Origin: a virus
Virus genome (UHGV): UHGV-1364246
Length of the DNA stretch: 39,893 nucleotides
Strand: one strand, 5' to 3'
This document shows, piece by piece, positions 2,183 through 29,144 of the stretch (positions are counted from its first letter, which is position 1; each line of letters begins with the position of its first letter). The position numbers and the translations under genes are program-made. The notes beneath the pieces are model-generated. The model was not told the DNA's origin. It did not search any database and worked only from the letters and a program-made list of their open reading frames with translations.

Positions 2183-3746
2183 CTTGAGCCATGTCCTCAC
2201 CAGCTACTTGTCCAACAGTAGCGCCCATGTTAGCACCAGCAGCAGACGCACCGTTGACCACAGCTCCTTGAGCGGATTGTTCTGCCATACGTTGCAACTT
2301 CTCGTCCTGAGTCAGCAGCAAACCGGCAGTGTCAATACCTAAGGCATTCAGCAGTCGCAGCTTCAGGGTAGGCAAGTTAATGTCTGGGTCCTGTTGCAGA
2401 GGCTGTAGCCCGGTCATCATGTTTACTGCCTGAGTCAGCTTCTCTAAGTCTTGACCACGACCTAACGCTTCCAGACCAGTGGATACCGTAGGCTCTACTG
2501 CTTCTTTCGGAAGGTCAGGAATCATGCCAGCAGACTGAAGCTGGTTCATCAGTACACGGACGATAGGTAACTGAAGCTCTTGTGACTGCACTGAGTACAC
2601 GCCACCTAAGGTCGCCTCCAGTTCGCCAGCAACATAACGAATCTCTTCAGCAGTGACTCGCTCGGCATTACGCTGAACAGCACTATTAAGAAGGAAGGCC
2701 CAACCTAAACGTTGCTCGATAGCGTCAGCCACCGACTTAGCAATCGTAAAGTCCTGACCTTTCGTCAGTTGCAGGAAGTTGATGTCCTCAACTCGACCAG
2801 CCACGAACTCACCTGTAGCCGCCTTGTTCAGACGTCTAGGTTGCGTGATACCGTTCGGGTTAACGAGGCCCACCACCTTGGAGGCTACCTTAGCCATTTT
2901 GGTGATAGCTTCTGTAATCGTCTCCAGCGAGTTCAGGTCTCCCAGATACTCCTCGCAGTAAGAACGACCGTAGTCTTCACCATCCAGTCGAACCATTCGT
3001 ACCGGGATGTATGGACATGCAGTCAGCGGGTAGGAACCATCGGTCCCTGCCACCTCAATACCTTCCACTTCCTCGTAGCGAAGATACTCGTCGTCCTGAC
3101 GGTAGATGTGCGTATACACTTCAAGCTCGGTGTCAGGCTCATAGTCGTCTGCGTTGAGTTGAGACTTCACGTCTTCCGGTAGAGCACTAAACGCTACCTT
3201 GTCGAGAGTCACAATCTGCAAGATGTTACCGAACGCATCACGTTGAACAACGTAAGACACTAAGCGGTACATTCGCATTGGACTGTAGGTTCCTTGTTCT
3301 GGAGGAGGGATGTAGAGCAGACAGTTACCTGAGACGATAAGCTGCTTCAAAGCCTCAAACAATGGGACACGGAAACTGTTAGTCTCCATGTAGGCCATCA
3401 ACACACGCTCGACCATAGCCAGCCCTTCGTCAACACGAGCAGCCGCCTCTGAGTCCTGACTCAAGGTCTTGGCCTCATATTCGGAGACTGTCAGTCGCAT
3501 CCACGGTGACTGAGGGAATAACGCCAACATCAGCTTTGCAGCCAAGTTGTTCAAGCAGCGAGCACCCACAGCTTGCCACGGCGTCACGTATTCCGTAGAC
3601 GAGTTGTCGGACTCCTTAGGAAACAGTGACGGGATAGTGACAGCCGCACAGTTCTGAGCGCGCGTCTCATATGGCTGTCTACCGTTCTTCAGTCTGTCAT
3701 AAACTGCCTTCGCGCCTTCAGCAGCAAATCCTTCACGTTCAGCCAT
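2178..3746 (-). CDS. Portal (head-to-tail connector) protein, gp8-like
   Basis: 522 aa; MAEREGFAAEGAKAVYDRLKNGRQPYETRAQNCA... closely matches recalled T7 gp8. Confidence 0.9.
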   Translation of the reverse strand: MAEREGFAAEGAKAVYDRLKNGRQPYETRAQNCAAVTIPSLFPKESDNSSTEYVTPWQAVGARCLNNLAAKLMLALFPQSPWMRLTVSEYEAKTLSQDSEAAARVDEGLAMVERVLMAYMETNSFRVPLFEALKQLIVSGNCLLYIPPPEQGTYSPMRMYRLVSYVVQRDAFGNILQIVTLDKVAFSALPEDVKSQLNADDYEPDTELEVYTHIYRQDDEYLRYEEVEGIEVAGTDGSYPLTACPYIPVRMVRLDGEDYGRSYCEEYLGDLNSLETITEAITKMAKVASKVVGLVNPNGITQPRRLNKAATGEFVAGRVEDINFLQLTKGQDFTIAKSVADAIEQRLGWAFLLNSAVQRNAERVTAEEIRYVAGELEATLGGVYSVQSQELQLPIVRVLMNQLQSAGMIPDLPKEAVEPTVSTGLEALGRGQDLEKLTQAVNMMTGLQPLQQDPDINLPTLKLRLLNALGIDTAGLLLTQDEKLQRMAEQSAQGAVVNGASAAGANMGATVGQVAGEDMAQA

Positions 3747-4149
3747 CTACGTGCCTCCATGTTTTACCTGTTAATACGTCAGACAGCGTTCTCCTGGCTA
3801 CTCCCGGATATGCAGAGGTAAGCTCTGTCGCTGTTAGCCCTGACTTTCGTATGGACTTAACATCTTCGGTTGTTAGCTTGGAGTTGTAATGGCTGTCACT
3901 ATGTGGAGCGTTCTTTCTACCTTTGGAAACACAGTCTACCATGTTATCGCTATAAGTACCAACGCTCAGGTGTTCGGGATTGACGCATAGTCTATTGTCG
4001 CAGGAGTGCATCACCACTAGACCTTCTGGTATGGGACCTTTGTGTTTTAGGTAGGACACTACATGCGCTCCACGTAGCTTACCTGCATACCACTTCAGTC
4101 CATATCCAGCATTATTTACGCAGCCCTTATGCAGTATGCAGTCTGTCAT
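3739..4149 (-). CDS. HNH endonuclease (T7 gene 7.7 position)
   Basis: 136 aa; HKGPIPEGLVVMHSCDNRLCVNPEHL HNH motif. Confidence 0.7.
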   Translation of the reverse strand: MTDCILHKGCVNNAGYGLKWYAGKLRGAHVVSYLKHKGPIPEGLVVMHSCDNRLCVNPEHLSVGTYSDNMVDCVSKGRKNAPHSDSHYNSKLTTEDVKSIRKSGLTATELTSAYPGVARRTLSDVLTGKTWRHVDG

Positions 4150-5391: not shown

Positions 5392-5517
5392 GTTTCACCT
5401 ATGGATGACTATTGGATTGATAGGATATGACTATCGGTTAGACTCAGTGTTTAGGACGGTTGTTCGACCCGAACCACTTGTACATGCAGTAAAGGGCCAG
5501 AAGTCCGGCCCAGTATA

Positions 5518-6384
5518 TTACATGGATGGTGTCCACAGGATGACCTCCTTGGACTTAGGGTCGTAGTCGGAGGCTCGGCAAATACGAGCGACCTGAGCTT
5601 GGACCAGAAGTTCCTCCTCGGTCATCCCAGCTTTATCAGCCAGAGTCACCATGCAGTCCCACAGCGTCATGTCGTCACGCTTTGGATACTTCTTCCACTC
5701 AGTCTTAATTTTGCCTTTGTTCTTACCAGTCTTAAGCTCACGGCTCTCCTGCACGAAGTAGTACGGCTCGTCAAGGAACGCACGAGTGGTATCCTCACCC
5801 ATCCCCGGAATGCCACCGTAGCCATCTGTAGTGTCACCCTTGATGGTTTGCTCCATGTGCCAGTAGTCTGCCTCAGCAGTAGTATGACTCAGAATTTCAC
5901 CAGTGGTTAACCAGAAGAACTCACAGTTCGGGATGGTCTTGAAGTCCTTATCGCAGGATACCAGCACCGCATGGTCACAGCCAACAATCTGAGGTCTGGT
6001 CCCTATGATACCCATACAGTCATCACCCTCAAGCGTAGGACGTAGGAAGCTGTTGAACCGGGGGTCAGCCATCACTTCGGCTACGAACTTCTTGTAACCT
6101 ACAGGCTTGCGAGAACCTTTACGGTTAGCCTTATAGGTCGGTAATATTGACTTGCGCCAGTTCACGTCATCGGTGAAGCACATCACAATCTTAGCGTCTT
6201 TCCACGCCTTGCGTTTCTTAACGATTTCAGCGATGGTGTTCTCAAGGATACGACGCGCCTTGGCGTGGTCACAAATCAGAGTATAAATATCATCGCCCCA
6301 ATCGGTCTCATCCTCAGCCGCAGCCATAGAAGAGAATACCAGATAGTCACCATCCAGAACCAGAGCTATCTTCTTGTCAGACAT
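5518..6384 (-). CDS. 5'-3' exonuclease (gp6-like, FEN family)
   Basis: 288 aa; LDGDYLVF...NWRK...YKANRK...DGYGGIPGMGE matches recalled T7 gp6. Confidence 0.9.
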   Translation of the reverse strand: MSDKKIALVLDGDYLVFSSMAAAEDETDWGDDIYTLICDHAKARRILENTIAEIVKKRKAWKDAKIVMCFTDDVNWRKSILPTYKANRKGSRKPVGYKKFVAEVMADPRFNSFLRPTLEGDDCMGIIGTRPQIVGCDHAVLVSCDKDFKTIPNCEFFWLTTGEILSHTTAEADYWHMEQTIKGDTTDGYGGIPGMGEDTTRAFLDEPYYFVQESRELKTGKNKGKIKTEWKKYPKRDDMTLWDCMVTLADKAGMTEEELLVQAQVARICRASDYDPKSKEVILWTPSM

Positions 6385-6602
6385 TACGCCTCCTCAACGA
6401 TACACACTGAAGAGAATGCACGTACCGTCTCGACTTCCTCGGCAGCTCCTTTCCAGCGAATAAATGTCTTATGCTTGATGGCTACCGTCTTAGGCATTAC
6501 CCGGACGACTTCGCCTATACACATTGCGTATGATTTTCCAGCAAGACAGAAAGCAACCTTATGTCCTACCTTAAGTTCGCGTCCTGATACGTCTTGATTC
6601 AT
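6384..6602 (-). CDS. Hypothetical 72-aa basic protein at the gp5.9 locus (not homologous to T7 gp5.9)
   Basis: ATG at 6600-6602 overlaps the gp5.7 stop (ATGA); its stop overlaps the gp6 start (TAATG). MNQDVSGRELKVGHKVAFCLAGK... Confidence 0.5.
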   Translation of the reverse strand: MNQDVSGRELKVGHKVAFCLAGKSYAMCIGEVVRVMPKTVAIKHKTFIRWKGAAEEVETVRAFSSVCIVEEA

Positions 6603-6808
6603 AGACAGCCTCCGTGTTGGTTCAGGAACTTGGTGCCAGCAGCGGTAATCTCCCACGCACCGTTGTTACGCCCGTCCATAGACAGGCAGCTAAGATGTCC
6701 ACGACTCGCAGCCTCAGCCACAAGTGCAGCGTTGTTGCGCACATAGTTTGACTGAAAGGTCTTCGGGCAGGACTTAAGGGCCGCAAGGACCCGAAGGTAT
6801 TCACTCAT
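6599..6808 (-). CDS. gp5.7-like protein
   Basis: 69 aa; MSEYLRVLAALKSCPKTFQSNYVRNNAALVAEAASRGHLSCLSM... resembles T7 gp5.7. Confidence 0.7.
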   Translation of the reverse strand: MSEYLRVLAALKSCPKTFQSNYVRNNAALVAEAASRGHLSCLSMDGRNNGAWEITAAGTKFLNQHGGCL

Positions 6809-7104
6809 TGCTTGAACCTCACAGTAGCTGGTGAGACACTGAAGAACTCTGCGTCTGAATACTCCTGTACAGCCTCTTTAATCATTGACCGGAAGCTGTC
6901 ACGCAGAATAAACTCAATCACTGCGTCCATACCTTCCGTCAGCCACAGGGTCAGCATATGGCGCTGCTTAGCGTCTGGATTGATTTCACCTGAGTGAACG
7001 CCTTTAGCCAGATCTCGCAGACCCTTAATGATGAATTCCTCTTGGTCTGTAGGAAGTACAGCCTTAAGGTTGAAACTTACGATAGCGCGTTTGGTCATAG
7101 CCAT
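6805..7104 (-). CDS. gp5.5-like protein (H-NS-binding protein in T7)
   Basis: ATG at 7102-7104 (TAATG overlap with DNAP stop, AAGGAG upstream); MAMTKRAIVSFN...SPATV resembles T7 gp5.5. The ORF-track start at 7122 is an extension. Confidence 0.75.
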   Translation of the reverse strand: MAMTKRAIVSFNLKAVLPTDQEEFIIKGLRDLAKGVHSGEINPDAKQRHMLTLWLTEGMDAVIEFILRDSFRSMIKEAVQEYSDAEFFSVSPATVRFKQ

Positions 7105-9272
7105 TAGTGACACTCCTTCCACGTTGGTCCAATCTTACCTTCGGTATCAAGGACACATTTAAAGTTATAGAACTCACCCACCTTACGCATAGCAAGTTGA
7201 GCAATCCTGCGAATATCTTCGGCAATCTCCATGTTCCGAGCTGCAATCTGCAATTCGTCGTGGACCCATGCCATGTACGCAAAGTCTCCTTCCCAGCCGT
7301 GGACATACCCGGCCTCTTCGAGCATACGTTCAGTCTCTACAATCCAGTGCTTACAGACTACCGCACCATCGCCCTGAAGTAATGCGTTCAGTGCTGAGTG
7401 TGGAGACCGTATGTGGATACGTCGACCATCAAGTCCACGCAACCAACGGCGTTTCCACTTAACGATGTTCTCACCATCTACCCACTTAGAGTCTGATATT
7501 AACGTATTACTCACAGCTTCCCTGAGGTCCTTGATGGCTGGTGTACCCTCAATGAATTTCTTCATGAGAGCTGAACCTTCCTTCTTACCACCGCCGACTA
7601 TCAGTCCAATCTTAGCGGCCCCTGCACCATACAGGAACGCATAGATGAACGTCTTAGCGTTGTTGCGGAAAGCATCATGGTCGTGGCTCGACTTATCGCG
7701 TGGGACGTTAGGTGCTAACCCAGCGTTGACTGCGTTTGCCCAGTGGATGTCACCTTCGACTACAGTCTTCGCATATGCACCACCATCAAACGGAGCCGCT
7801 CGGTTCCCTAGACAACGAAGCTCAAGACCTGAAGCATCCACGCCTACTTGAATCCAAGGGTCTGGCTTGCCATCCTTCTTGTTCCACGCTGCACCGAAAG
7901 CACCACGGCAAGTCTCACCATATGGAGCACCGTTAGCCGGGACCTGAGCCATGTTTGGTGAGCTATGGGTCGCACGTCCTGTTACTGCACCACAAGGGTT
8001 GATTGAACCGTGCATACGTCCGTCTGGACCCACAAGTTTCAACCATGCGTTCTTACCTTCAGCAGCCTGACCGATGCGCTTCTGGACCACAAGATACTCA
8101 CGGACCAACTCTACACAAGCCTGAGCCTCTGCGTCTGGTAACTTAACGTGTTCTAACGTCTCGTCATCGACTACAGGTTTCCCAGTGTCAGTGAAGTCCA
8201 CAGGCTCCCAACCACGCTCCATCAGGACTTTCGCTAAGTGGTCTCCGCTTCCCGGATTAAATTCAACGTAAGTGATTGGCGTGAATGGTGCTCCCTCCAT
8301 CGTGTCTCGCGTATCGAGTTCACAAGGTTCGAGACCTAATCGTTGAGCTTTGTTCTTCGGCTTCTTAAAGATGCCACCGACCTTAGGATACACGACCCTC
8401 GGATACTTCGGAAGGTCCTTACCTGTCCGTGGATGCCTGAAGAACTCCTTGCCTCCCTTTGGTGCATACCAGCTACCGAAAGTAGAGCGCAGCTTGTCCA
8501 GTAACTCCGCACGTTTGACAGTGAGTTCACGATATAAGCCTTCGACCATCTCGGTGTTCATCGGATAGCCGTTACGCTCCATCTTCGCACAGGTCCACGC
8601 AGCATCATGTTCCAGACGCAACGCATAAATCTGTTCGAAAGCGAACTGTTCAGACTGGAAGTAATACTTGTCAGTCAGGAACTTCTTGAACAATGCCAGT
8701 GTGACCACAACGTCCTGAACGTTATAGTCCAGCATCTCCTGAGACGGGAACAACCATTCGTCCCCAGCCTTATATTCGATACCTTCGGCCTTGCACTTGG
8801 CAACGTAATCGTGTTTGTACTCACCCTTCATCTCACCGAGACGATAGCCCCAAGCCTCAAGAGACTGGCGTCCCATCATCTTAGGCGGCAGACGTCCAGC
8901 TTTCACCGCGCCTATGTCTGAGAACTTAATGTTGGGATACATCAAGCGGCCCAGCACCAAGGTATCAATCATCTTGTGTTTCGGGAAGTTAAATCGTTTC
9001 CCAAAGTACAGACGTTTCAGCTTGTCAATAGCCGGGACGTCATAGTTGATACCATTGTGGAATACCAGCATACCATCAGGTGATGCGGCAATCTCTTCCA
9101 CTTTATGAACATACTCTTTGAAGCCACCGACGATACCAACCATCGGAGCTACCCCATACTTAAGGGTCTCATTCGACTCGGCGTTAATCAGGACCCCGCA
9201 GTGGAACTGGGAGACTGTATCAAGGAGACCGTTGGTCTCGATGTCAGACCCATATACGTTACTTAAGTCCAT
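7104..9272 (-). CDS. DNA polymerase (gp5-like, family A with 3'-5' exonuclease)
   Basis: 722 aa; MDLSNVYGSDIETNGLL... exo motif; syntenic; size close to T7 gp5. Confidence 0.92.
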   Translation of the reverse strand: MDLSNVYGSDIETNGLLDTVSQFHCGVLINAESNETLKYGVAPMVGIVGGFKEYVHKVEEIAASPDGMLVFHNGINYDVPAIDKLKRLYFGKRFNFPKHKMIDTLVLGRLMYPNIKFSDIGAVKAGRLPPKMMGRQSLEAWGYRLGEMKGEYKHDYVAKCKAEGIEYKAGDEWLFPSQEMLDYNVQDVVVTLALFKKFLTDKYYFQSEQFAFEQIYALRLEHDAAWTCAKMERNGYPMNTEMVEGLYRELTVKRAELLDKLRSTFGSWYAPKGGKEFFRHPRTGKDLPKYPRVVYPKVGGIFKKPKNKAQRLGLEPCELDTRDTMEGAPFTPITYVEFNPGSGDHLAKVLMERGWEPVDFTDTGKPVVDDETLEHVKLPDAEAQACVELVREYLVVQKRIGQAAEGKNAWLKLVGPDGRMHGSINPCGAVTGRATHSSPNMAQVPANGAPYGETCRGAFGAAWNKKDGKPDPWIQVGVDASGLELRCLGNRAAPFDGGAYAKTVVEGDIHWANAVNAGLAPNVPRDKSSHDHDAFRNNAKTFIYAFLYGAGAAKIGLIVGGGKKEGSALMKKFIEGTPAIKDLREAVSNTLISDSKWVDGENIVKWKRRWLRGLDGRRIHIRSPHSALNALLQGDGAVVCKHWIVETERMLEEAGYVHGWEGDFAYMAWVHDELQIAARNMEIAEDIRRIAQLAMRKVGEFYNFKCVLDTEGKIGPTWKECH

Positions 9273-9664
9273 GTTTCTCCTCCAATTGCTCTAGCCAGTG
9301 TGCGGTGACCCACTCCATACTTCTTACCTAAGGAGCGGTGAGTCCAGCCACCTCCTGCGTAAAGCACCTTGGCCTCTTGTACTATTTCAGGTGTAAGCTT
9401 ATAGCTTCCATGTCGCACGCCTTTAGCGGTTCGACCTCTAACGTCTCTATCGTGATTGTTCTCAGCCCTTGTCCCCAGCTCCAAGTGTTCTGGATTGTAG
9501 CACGCTGGGTTGTCGCATTTGTGCCTCACGACCATTCCCTCTGGTATCGGACCATTCGCCTCCTCGAAGGCTATCAGATGCAGTCTACGGACCTTCCCGT
9601 TGACCTTTCGCATACCGTAGCCGAAACTATCTCGACACCCGGTCCACTCAATGCAATCAAACAT
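9263..9664 (-). CDS. HNH endonuclease
   Basis: ATG at 9662-9664 with GGAGGA upstream; GPIPEGMVVRHKCDNPACYNPEHLELGTRAENN HNH motif. The ORF-track start at 9700 is an extension. Confidence 0.7.
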   Translation of the reverse strand: MFDCIEWTGCRDSFGYGMRKVNGKVRRLHLIAFEEANGPIPEGMVVRHKCDNPACYNPEHLELGTRAENNHDRDVRGRTAKGVRHGSYKLTPEIVQEAKVLYAGGGWTHRSLGKKYGVGHRTLARAIGGETWT

Positions 9665-9680
9665 GGTTAATCCTCCGTTT

Positions 9681-9727
9681 AGTCTAATCATAAAGGCCAC
9701 TCGCTGTGAATGACCTTGAGTCTAGAC
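9681..9727 (-). ncRNA. RNase III processing element (R4.7-like)
   Basis: Conserved ~45-nt element ATCATAAAGGCCAC-N10-ATGACCTTGAGTCTA (plus sense), shared with 17041-17089 and 26086-26139; resembles recalled T7 R-site motif GACTCAAGGTC...GTGGCCTTTATG. Confidence 0.6.
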
Positions 9728-22719: not shown

Positions 22720-23045
22720 TGACTGTAGGTGTTGGTGTCTTATGGTTGAGACTGTAGGTTAGTGACTTATGGTCTGATACAGATAGAGACTCAAAGAAGA
22801 CCCATAGTCCCAACCTATCGTCCTGACCATCAGCCATAGCCTAGACCTATCGTAGACCTAACGTCTTGACCATTGGTCCAACCTTATGATAGACTGGGGT
22901 AGGGCCTTTGGTCTGGACTGAAAGAGGGCCTATGGGGAGACTTGAGGTTCTTGAACTGTGAGATGTGGTCTCAAACTTTTGGTCCAAAACTCATCGTCAT
23001 TACTGTAGGTCACAGCCACTGTAGGTCAAGGACCGTAGGTCAGGC
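22720..23045. repeat. Genome-end region: collapsed terminal repeat flanked by arrays of the short direct repeat (C)YGTAGGT; inferred physical left end at about 22963
   Basis: Five copies of ctgtaggt/ccgtaggt (22723, 22752, 23003, 23019, 23033), analogous to T7 ACCTAAAG arrays; minus-sense TCTCACAGT...CCCCATAGG at 22963 downward resembles the first bases of T7. Confidence 0.5.
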
Positions 23046-26602: not shown

Positions 26603-26924
26603 AAAACCTCCAGTTTAAAGCGGGTCGTCCGTGACCCAAAGTTGTACCATACGTTGGTCAGCGTGTAGTTAGCCTCTACCTCCACAACCTTCGATCCTCT
26701 ACCCAGTTCAGGAATCCAATGGTGCCAGAGGTAGCAGTAATGGTCGTAACCACGTTAACGTCTTTAACAGTTCCGTCATCAGTAGTCAGAGTAAAGAGAT
26801 TGGAACCATCAGAGCCATTGATATTTGATGGTTTTAGCAACAACATCAGCAACCAAAACAACAAATCCCACAAGGAGGAAATGAGCCTCCTATGAAATTC
26901 GACGATTCAATACCCTTCTAATGA

Positions 26925-26950
26925 TAAAAATAACCCGCCAAAGCGGGGTT
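26925..26950. terminator. GC hairpin with flanking A/T runs immediately 3' of the tail fiber gene (possible bidirectional terminator)
   Basis: aaaaataaCCCGCcaaaGCGGGgtttattatttt; embedded in an AT-rich 355-bp gap between fiber and holin. Confidence 0.5.
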
Positions 26951-26957
26951 TATTATT

Positions 26958-29144
26958 TTAAAAAGTAGCACCCCTCCATGAGCAATCAACAATCCCACCG
27001 CGCACCATCTTCCACCGCATGTTGTACGATGCCGATGGTACAAGGCGGAGTCCTATTCCCAGATTCGGTGTCAGCTCGACCGCATTTATCCAAGCAGTTG
27101 ATGAGGTTGAAAATGTAAAAGATAGCTGCTCCGTATTTGTGTAAAAATCATCAACGCAAGTTGTTATTGATGCTGTAGTATTTGCAGTATCCGCGCCGTT
27201 AAAATAATACAGCTCAACAGCCACGTACCCGTGGTTCTTCATCCTTGTAGCAAACACGCCTCCGGTGTTTCTTGCCGCGATACCACCCTGTTTGAATGTG
27301 GTGTTACGCTCTCCCTGTGCGCTCCCGGCATTGATAGTCTGGAATGGTGTGACATCGGCGGAACTGTACTTGTCATTGTACAACTGCATAGCCCCACCCA
27401 TTCTATCCGTGTAAAATGCGTACACATCTATGTCATAAGGTTTTTGTCTAGGTACAGAATTGAATTCTTTCCCTAAAGCGTACAAATCAGTATCGGTGGT
27501 CAATGTGTTGTGTGTGTTTACGATGAGCTGTGTTTCCCACGAGAACGCCGCATACTCACCATCGCCCATGTTAAAAAACTTCTTAGCGAAAGCTATCTGT
27601 TTTGCTTTGTTTTTGAAGTTGTCAGAACCACCATTTGCATCAGTTGTAAACAATCCAACGCAAGGTACAATTCTTGATGTAGGGCATTTATACTTTAGCT
27701 CGGCCCACCCAATAACAGCCTGTCGTTTATTCCTGGCATCATCCCAGTCATCATGATAATACGCGTCTGCAAATATAATATCGTATCCAGTACCATCATA
27801 ACCGCCCGGGTGTGTATTTGAATCAAATCCAAAAATACCATGTTCAGCTATGCATAATGATTTTTCTGTGAATGATTTAAATGCCGCGATGCGGGTTTCT
27901 TGCGCCGCCCTGCTAACTGAATTATTTTGTGGTTCATCAAACAAATAATAGCCGATAACACAATCTCTACTGTCTAAGTCGGTAGCCGGAGTGTTTGTCT
28001 GTCCATATATTGGCCCACCAAGTATAAGTTTAAGCCCAACAGCTTCGGCGGCGTTACAGGCTTTTTCCATATTCCCACCGCTTGTCCACGCTTGTCCGTA
28101 GTGTATTAGCGTATTAAACCCGGCAGTTTTTAGTTGTAACATATCACATATATCAAACACGCGATGGACATATACAGCCTTCATGAGCGAATGATTTACA
28201 GGGGTTTCACTGTCAAGCTCACAAGGAACGTTTGGTAGCCTTGTGTATGTGATGGCGGCCTTTCCTGTCAATCTGGCTCCTTCAGGCCAATCAAAACTCG
28301 ATAATGTCGTGGCACCGGATATGTGTGCGTACCCGTGGTCCGATATAGCTGATAGAACCGCGTCTTTACCATCAACACCACTACCATAAACATACCCGTA
28401 ATTAGAGATGTCTGCGCGGTCTAAATTTAATCGTTGTTGAACAGTTAATCCGTTATTAGTCCCAACTAAATTGGAACCATTATTTGTTTTAAGTGCGCTT
28501 CTTAATGAAGCATCACCAACACTAACCCACGCACCTAATCCAATCCCACCGGAAGTTTCAGGAGTTGAACCAGCAGGAACGTTCTTTGGAAGCGTACCAC
28601 CCCAGCGGTAATAATCACCATCCTCTTCCCATAGCAGGACCTCGTTCCATGTTGTAACGTTGAAGCCTTTCTCGAAGGAGCGACGGGTAATATAGCCAAA
28701 TAGACCAGCTGCCTTGATACTCTCAGCAATTCGTCGTGCTTCGTCCTCGCTATCCTTAGCGTTGCCAGCAGAGCTACCAGCAGCATCGGCATATTCCTTC
28801 GCTAAGTCAACCGTTTGGTCTCGACCTTCTTCTGCAATATGGATAGCCTGAAGCTCTGCATTGGTCAGGTCACTAGCTGTCAACACTGAGCCATTCCTGA
28901 AGTCTACCACTAAGTCAGTTCCAGTCTGACGGTGAATACGAACGATGTCGAAACCTGATTGGTCAACCAACATCTCAATCATCGTTGGATTAATGAATCG
29001 GTAATCTCGACCAACTTCCAGTACACGGTTCAGGGTAGGGTTAGAGCTATTCACCAGCGTAACAACAACAAACGTTCTGGCTAGGTAGTCGAACTCAATC
29101 CTGTACTGAGTGTTTCCTGAAGGGAATTGTGTAATCGTGGACAT
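26958..29144 (-). CDS. Tail fiber / tailspike: gp17-like N-terminal adaptor fused to a glycoside-hydrolase-like (putative polysaccharide depolymerase) C-terminal region
   Basis: 728 aa; the N-terminus (up to about LVDFRNGSVLTASDL...AIHIAEEGRD) matches the T7 gp17 anchor; the remainder is unrelated to T7, with a TIM-barrel-like YLFDEPQ motif; coding DNA from about 27000 to 28500 is visibly AT-richer than the rest of the genome. Confidence 0.8.
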   Translation of the reverse strand: MSTITQFPSGNTQYRIEFDYLARTFVVVTLVNSSNPTLNRVLEVGRDYRFINPTMIEMLVDQSGFDIVRIHRQTGTDLVVDFRNGSVLTASDLTNAELQAIHIAEEGRDQTVDLAKEYADAAGSSAGNAKDSEDEARRIAESIKAAGLFGYITRRSFEKGFNVTTWNEVLLWEEDGDYYRWGGTLPKNVPAGSTPETSGGIGLGAWVSVGDASLRSALKTNNGSNLVGTNNGLTVQQRLNLDRADISNYGYVYGSGVDGKDAVLSAISDHGYAHISGATTLSSFDWPEGARLTGKAAITYTRLPNVPCELDSETPVNHSLMKAVYVHRVFDICDMLQLKTAGFNTLIHYGQAWTSGGNMEKACNAAEAVGLKLILGGPIYGQTNTPATDLDSRDCVIGYYLFDEPQNNSVSRAAQETRIAAFKSFTEKSLCIAEHGIFGFDSNTHPGGYDGTGYDIIFADAYYHDDWDDARNKRQAVIGWAELKYKCPTSRIVPCVGLFTTDANGGSDNFKNKAKQIAFAKKFFNMGDGEYAAFSWETQLIVNTHNTLTTDTDLYALGKEFNSVPRQKPYDIDVYAFYTDRMGGAMQLYNDKYSSADVTPFQTINAGSAQGERNTTFKQGGIAARNTGGVFATRMKNHGYVAVELYYFNGADTANTTASITTCVDDFYTNTEQLSFTFSTSSTAWINAVELTPNLGIGLRLVPSASYNMRWKMVRGGIVDCSWRGATF

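Follow-up and report, generated by a model that had tools for sequence, protein, structure and literature searches.

What takes the place of gp5.9, the DNA mimic encoded between genes 5.7 and 6 of phage T7, when a T7 relative encodes something else at this position? The question is raised by the virus genome UHGV-1364246 (39,893 nucleotides (nt); the whole stretch of DNA analysed is called the window), in which an open reading frame (ORF) of 72 amino acids (aa) at 6384-6602 occupies the junction. A sequence-only reading of the window had described this ORF as translationally coupled between 5.7 and 6, rich in Lys and without resemblance to gp5.9, and had proposed that it either replaces gp5.9 functionally, by another mechanism, or is an accessory gene unrelated to it. 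The coordinates and both overlaps proved exact: the ATG of the ORF (6602-6600) overlaps the TGA of gene 5.7 (6601-6599) as ATGA, and its TAA (6386-6384) overlaps the ATG of gene 6 (6384-6382) as TAATG. T7 gene 5.9 holds exactly the corresponding position. As set out below, the ORF belongs to an uncharacterised phage family, its product is confidently predicted to be a small β-barrel, and we tentatively read it as an accessory companion of gp5.9-type proteins, not as their like-for-like substitute.

The best megablast match for 5500-7200 was phage EcoDS1 (Kayfunavirus, K1F group of T7 relatives), at 96.7% over the entire query. Compared genome-wide, the window is EcoDS1-like, reverse complemented and circularly permuted, so that the genes of the 5.5-5.7-X-6 string (X being the ORF) lie on the minus strand. 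EcoDS1 encodes at the same position, with the same overlaps, a protein 97% identical to that of the ORF (AS9_0028, ACF15807.1; annotated as 'unknown product'), and nothing of substance differs between the two. The ORF protein matched 204 phage records by tblastn, and a profile of 18 diverse members searched against 1.84 billion proteins reached 219 representative clusters at E≤1e-3. In diverged Kayfunavirus pairs (dS ~0.5-0.6) the ratio of nonsynonymous to synonymous substitution rates (dN/dS) was 0.08-0.18, and the length of 72 codons was kept, together with both overlaps, in all five Kayfunavirus copies compared. The ORF is a genuine gene under purifying selection, with the appearance of being expressed, and is coupled within the 5.5-5.7-X-6 string of DNA-metabolism (class II) genes. 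Its product is mildly basic instead of Lys-rich: Val is the commonest residue (11), Lys accounts for 7 of the 72 (9.7%), and the 1 Asp, 7 Glu, 7 Lys and 4 Arg give a net charge of +3 and an isoelectric point (pI) of 8.9. On this composition, Lys content was dropped as a functional clue.

Residues 2-71 matched phrog_2251, a family of unknown function (E=6.6e-21), and a hit to PF23835.2 (PF23835 being DUF7205) is precomputed for every homologue of 75-93% identity. A Pfam scan of the ORF itself, made with the older version.1 of PF23835, which misses the ORF and reaches the barrel of phage IMEP24 only at E=0.01, gave nothing at threshold and only CusF_Ec below it (E=0.066); an NCBIfam search returned no match. 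The invariant or near-invariant columns of the family alignment (D4, G7, G13, V16, F18, G30, K38-T39-V40 and V66) are present in the ORF, and the identical conservation pattern is found in the barrel subfamily of the Studiervirinae. The ORF adds to a known uncharacterised family (DUF7205/phrog_2251) in which the gene had already been annotated, in EcoDS1; the Citrobacter SH-phage paper and the accessory-gene screen make no mention of it.

An AlphaFold2 monomer model from an 18-sequence alignment (predicted local distance difference test score (pLDDT) 89.4, predicted template modelling score 0.74) has five strands and no helix of at least 4 residues, and the fold is confidently predicted to be a five-stranded, highly curved antiparallel SH3-like small β-barrel of Tudor/KOW type. 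Foldseek of this model against the PDB gave nothing at E≤1e-3, the best matches being the barrels of eL21, L24 and KapB; a profile search of PDB sequences reached at best E=1.3, with no solved relative; structural neighbours in BFVD were uncharacterised phage proteins only, and the Tudor and KOW Pfam models did not match the ORF. Identity to known SH3-like barrels (the Tudor domains of Sgf29, PHF19 and SMN; the KOW domains of Spt5, the NusG C-terminal domain and L24; eL21; PF24203 Phage_ProQ_C_like) is 7-21%. As judged from the model, the likeness is at the level of fold only and implies no specific ligand. Stand-alone members of the family have a median pI of 8.9, with 82% above 7.5. The multi-repeat proteins P0031, P0050 and P0058, which also match the family profile, were set aside as generic and uninformative Tudor/SH3 repeats.

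The lack of resemblance to gp5.9 was borne out. A profile search for gp5.9 homology, named beforehand as the decisive check, was run and found none: hhalign of the family against six gp5.9-family proteins gave a probability of 0.2% (E 0.29), blastp produced no alignment, and PF25708 (Phage_T7_Gp5_9) did not hit the ORF in Pfam even at E≤10. Nor was a gp5.9-family ORF found elsewhere, as a hidden Markov model (HMM) of the six proteins run with --max against the six-frame ORFs of the window gave a best E of 2.4, and tblastn was negative; the phage is without any recognisable gp5.9. What the ORF protein shares with T7 gp5.9 is the position between 5.7 and 6, small size and translational coupling. 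The two differ in charge (pI 4.1 and net −8 for T7 gp5.9, versus pI 8.9 and net +3) and in architecture. gp5.9 has been described as a highly acidic dimer, a parallel coiled coil braced by an N-terminal strand, with Asp and Glu as phosphate mimics, that imitates DNA in the DNA-binding sites of RecBCD and MukE (PMC9836394; PMC7617805), whereas the ORF protein is basic and predicted to be all-β, which excludes DNA mimicry of the gp5.9 type.

The content of the slot was surveyed by searching its flanks and the ORF against a phage collection and reading two-piece match spans and inspected records. Only 28 of the 224 records with flank matches hold the ORF gene. The slot is empty in K1F, PE3-1 and many other Kayfunaviruses. 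Other records hold an insert of ~445 nt encoding an unrelated 149-aa phrog_4382 protein (the SH4-like Salmonella phage CHRF_10022 by inspection, other sampled records by span only), one of ~270 nt (SH4, SH5, ST56, and BHUENT8, where the span holds an IMEP24-type barrel match) or one of ~320 nt (322), the size of a fusion gene (ST34, ST16 and ST64); in pO91 the annotation under the match reads 'HNH endonuclease motif protein'. Outside the genus, gp5.9 is the sole slot gene of T7 and T3. A lone barrel gene separates 5.7 from gene 6 in Przondovirus K2044-HW, and in Teseptimavirus KKE5P a barrel gene comes directly after 5.7; in the Berlinvirus/Salmonella phage JSS2 and Klebsiella phage KA1-1 a gp5.9-family gene (PF25708, 54 and 63 bits) is followed at once by a barrel. 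Barrels of the JSS2/KA1-1 type align with the family of the window over 63 columns (hhalign probability 97%, E 1.2e-10), with reciprocal HMM hits.

Alignment of the junctions of the window, EcoDS1, PE3-1 and IMEP24 revealed a common context of Shine-Dalgarno sequence plus start, "GGAGGCTGTCT(A/G)TGAG", that serves any gene after 5.7. The slot is a hypervariable accessory region, whose clean left boundary is this context. Counter-defence genes have been described as enriched in the variable stretches that separate core genes (bioRxiv 10.1101/2023.04.06.535777). gp5.9 is reported to trigger retron Ec48 (PMC9836394) and type III Sir2-HerA (PMC13434337), and its action as a defence trigger provides a rationale for the frequent loss of gp5.9 and the turnover of the slot. 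The motif 'LMSHLNSE[DE]NDMAxEF' occurs both in the 149-aa slot protein of CHRF_10022 (locus L009, 1057-1506) and near the N-terminus of Erwinia phage Y2 gp58 (locus L020, 2836-3090), the C-terminus of which is a PF25708 module. The shared motif is further evidence of small modules shuffled among slot proteins.

In some phages the barrel and the gp5.9-family module form one protein. The slot protein of Kayfunavirus IMEP24 (UCR92068.1, 103 aa) matches phrog_2251 over residues 6-64 (E 6e-12) and PF25708, 'Phage T7 gp5.9 RecBCD inhibitor', over residues 64-97 (50.8 bits versus a gathering score of 24.5). In the big protein collection, this DUF7205-PF25708 architecture is represented by seven clusters at 90% identity (P0174-P0180), which span 59-98% identity. 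The P0180 fusion is encoded between 5.7 and 6 in a T7-like phage with a gene 6 product of 305 aa (288 aa in the window). A very divergent fusion, P0157 (PF25708, 31 bits), is flanked by genes for a DNA ligase and a 5'-3' exonuclease in a T7-like element that is only distantly related. The fusion is thus maintained across considerable divergence. The fusion proteins have an N-terminal barrel homologous to the ORF protein (hhalign 97%), in the case of IMEP24 and P0180 in the same slot, but identity within the barrel is only ~22%, and the added helix, 'GVDNWxGY' motif and acidic tail (~40 aa) have no equivalent in the ORF. A model of the fusion protein was of low confidence (pLDDT 66) and was used for its secondary-structure outline only. 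Two other members of the family, P0033 and P0121, are fused to zinc-ribbon-like segments instead.

Homologues were also found at unrelated loci in Pseudomonas myoviruses and in other Autographiviridae, amid genes of nucleotide and DNA metabolism. Pseudomonas phage PaP1 gp034, KPP10 ORF69 and Ralstonia phage RSB2 ORF20 share with the ORF protein a length of ~70 aa, the N-terminal pattern D-x-x-G...VG-x-x-V-x-F, the PKTV motif and the predicted barrel; they differ from it in genome position and are 28-43% identical to it.

These results bear on the two functions that the sequence-only reading had offered. The shared slot, the lack of homology and the different chemistry all hold, and of the two proposals the accessory gene is favoured; a simple replacement is disfavoured, and 'unrelated' is probably too strong. 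We prefer an accessory gene because the slot is empty in so many Kayfunaviruses, K1F and PE3-1 among them, because a barrel and a gp5.9-family gene coexist in JSS2 and KA1-1, because homologues occupy unrelated positions in the Pseudomonas myoviruses and other Autographiviridae, and because the protein, basic and predicted to be an all-β barrel, is unlike an acidic, helical mimic of DNA. The reservation about 'unrelated' comes from the repeated fusion of the barrel to the PF25708 module, a hint of a functional link. This adjacency and fusion is the only positive functional clue and hints at a shared functional sphere. The barrel may be dispensable and serve in host interaction or counter-defence, as a small module that binds a protein or nucleic-acid ligand and does not mimic DNA; most likely it would act where gp5.9-type proteins also act, at the interface with host DNA-end processing or defence. 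It would supply recognition or binding, alone where it stands alone as in the window, and would be a companion module of gp5.9-family proteins, not an equivalent of gp5.9. Because of the repeated adjacency to and fusion with the acidic gp5.9-family module, we place the highest weight on this sphere, and the reading of the ORF as an accessory companion module of gp5.9-type DNA-end processing or defence is put forward tentatively, somewhat short of an even chance.

Several observations weigh against it. Recombination via the conserved flanks could simply suffice to explain the shared position, and the SH3-like fold is a generic one, from which no function can be read. The barrel subfamily of the window type has been seen solely as a stand-alone protein. 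The PF25708 part of the fusions ('LxALEAGGVDNWxGY plus acidic tail') corresponds to the C-terminal half of the Berlinvirus/Teetrevirus 'gp5.9' and is missing from T7 gp5.9, which has no direct similarity to the IMEP24 fusion either (blastp E=1.5), so that RecBCD inhibition is not established for the module. The module is promiscuous, being appended to several unrelated N-termini (P0181, P0182 and P0183). In Erwinia Y2, Proteus Myduc and Acinetobacter 133 the PF25708 gene has no barrel gene within 3 kb, and no gp5.9-family neighbour was found beside the barrel genes of Pseudomonas phages PaP1, KPP10 and phTUNSv or of RSB2. A literature search for PF23835 or DUF7205 returned no papers. A bolder form of the companion-module reading, which we hold improbable, would make the DUF7205 barrel an overlooked targeting or binding domain of a modular two-part anti-RecBCD/anti-defence system, deployed as adjacent genes, as a fusion or in a form reduced to the barrel. 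On this view, barrels that stand alone would inhibit or evade, by means other than DNA mimicry, a host complex of DNA-end processing or defence.

Nearly as plausible as the companion module, although in itself doubtful, is a nucleic-acid-binding barrel (KOW, Tudor or ProQ-C-terminal-like) that would have RNA or DNA of the phage or the host as its target and might serve as a chaperone or regulator during the DNA-metabolism stage, outside the gp5.9 pathway; the sharing of the slot would then be a by-product of recombination. The SH3-like fold with its KOW, eL21 and L24 neighbours, the consistently basic family, sub-threshold hits to PF24203 Phage_ProQ_C_like (14.6-24.6 bits versus a cut-off of 27), the independent zinc-ribbon fusions in P0033 and P0121 and the homologues amid nucleotide and DNA-metabolism genes of unrelated phages all fit this alternative. 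However, no family was hit at its curated threshold, the profile search of PDB sequences went no further than the E value given above, the ligands of SH3-like barrels are proteins no less often than nucleic acids, and this alternative does not account for a fusion with the acidic PF25708 module that is conserved in three lineages.

A true replacement, in which the barrel alone inhibits RecBCD (or another gp5.9 target, for example MukBEF) by a mechanism other than mimicry, is unlikely. It would agree with a slot and translational coupling as in T7 gene 5.9, with a window devoid of any gp5.9-family ORF and with the recurrent fusion, which suggests action on the same complex. It is opposed by the coexistence of barrels and gp5.9 in JSS2 and KA1-1, and by K1F, PE3-1 and the many Kayfunaviruses with an empty slot and no gp5.9, so that the genus needs no replacement; homologues at unrelated loci in Pseudomonas and Ralstonia phages and the basic all-β protein, the opposite of the acidic coiled-coil mimic (PMC9836394), point the same way. 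Finally, a spurious or decaying ORF, the functionless remnant of a mobile cassette, would suit a gene that is optional in the genus and missing from most relatives, in a window with other mobile insertions (two HNH_3 ORFs), but it is essentially excluded by the low dN/dS at dS ~0.5-0.6, the length and coupling conserved in all five copies, the confident structure model and the broad family.

By itself, the ORF is an ordinary hypothetical accessory gene; it is of value because it leads to the 5.7-to-6 junction of T7-like phages. That junction amounts to a compact experiment of nature: gp5.9, barrel, fusion, other small proteins or nothing are swapped among near-identical genomes. Since gp5.9 not only inhibits RecBCD and MukBEF but also sets off abortive defences (retron Ec48 and type III Sir2-HerA), learning what the barrel does, and why it is repeatedly coupled to the gp5.9-family module, could reveal how phages keep this liability in balance. 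A function found for the barrel would serve a family of hundreds in phages of Escherichia, Klebsiella, Salmonella, Pseudomonas and Ralstonia. What deserves to be pursued is the recurring combination of DUF7205 with PF25708, together with the shuffling of modules in the slot.

The layout of the coupled genes around the ORF, as checked, is given in Table 1.

Table 1. Features of the coupled gene string around the 72-codon ORF (window coordinates)
Feature	Position	Strand	Evidence
72-codon ORF plus TAA stop, DUF7205/phrog_2251 protein, predicted small β-barrel	6384..6602	-	ORF and translation; phrog match; AlphaFold2; dN/dS
Shine-Dalgarno GGAGG of the ORF, 6 nt 5' of the ATG, within the 3' end of gene 5.7	6609..6613	-	Sequence and junction alignment
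Shine-Dalgarno GAGGAGG of gene 6, inside the last codons of the ORF (VEEA)	6389..6395	-	Sequence
Gene 5.7, 69 aa, upstream flank	6599..6808	-	77% identity to T7 gp5.7; phrog_1334
Gene 6, 5'-3' exonuclease, 288 aa, downstream flank	5518..6384	-	51% identity to T7 gp6; PF02739; phrog_107
Gene 5.5, H-NS inhibitor family, upstream in the same coupled string	6805..7104	-	PF11247 Phage_T7_55, E=6.7e-22; phrog_1452; EcoDS1 annotation

Some further observations concern the PF25708 module. As a comparison of T7 gp5.9 with gene 5.9 of Berlinvirus, Teetrevirus and Klebsiella phages showed, the model is dominated by the module that T7 gp5.9 lacks; it scores T7 gp5.9 at 27.8 bits (cut-off 24.5) and Kvp1 gp5.9 at 72.5. 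The Berlinvirus-type gp5.9 looks like a chimera of a T7-like N-terminal third and the module. Gene 5.9 of phiYeO3-12 (locus L012, 683-865) carries the GenBank note 'not homologous to bacteriophage T3 or T7 gp5.9'; residues 4-26 of T7 gp5.9 align to it by tblastn with 56.5% identity, and the N-terminal 'VTxxRDxWND' is common to it, Kvp1 and T7. On many distant phage proteins the label 'RecBCD inhibitor' derives from the PF25708 module alone. To our knowledge, RecBCD inhibition has been demonstrated for T7 gp5.9 only, and the labels 'host RecBCD nuclease inhibitor' on phrog_6234, phrog_4790 and GenBank records appear to be transferred annotation. The module occurs in phages of Erwinia, Proteus, Acinetobacter, Clostridium and Enterococcus; loci that carry it, in Erwinia phage Y2, Proteus phage Myduc and Acinetobacter phage 133, are L020 (as above), L021 (2965-3108) and L022 (2980-3282). 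Conserved linkage of barrel and PF25708 beyond the enterobacterial T7-like slot was considered and rejected, given the neighbourhoods in the three PF25708 phages and four barrel phages named above. In P0183 the segment preceding the module is a 'KKPVEIEAVQW...GDWIIKG' domain.

Among the relatives outside the slot, RSB2 ORF20 (locus L005, 2680-3198) is annotated with 58 aa and starts inside the barrel. The family HMM aligns further upstream in the same frame, the barrel domain being residues 106-171 of the stop-to-stop frame, and the annotated start is probably too far downstream.

Elsewhere in the window, two ORFs match Pfam HNH_3, at 3739-4149 (minus strand, 136 aa, E 1.6e-13) and 9263-9700 (minus strand, 145 aa, E 1.8e-17). 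They lie within two ~400-nt stretches that have no EcoDS1 counterpart, one between 7.3 and 8 and the other between 4.3 and 5, and look like homing-endonuclease insertions. At 22722-22963, the matches to both ends of the EcoDS1 genome overlap by ~179 nt. The terminal repeat of EcoDS1 is 178 nt long, and the near-equality of the two lengths implies that the assembly was circularised via one copy of the repeat and that the physical genome ends lie at 22722-22963. Positions 26662-28504, which gave no blastn match to EcoDS1, correspond to the distal portion of gene 17, for the tail fibre or tailspike, and this divergence suggests a different receptor-binding domain and host specificity.

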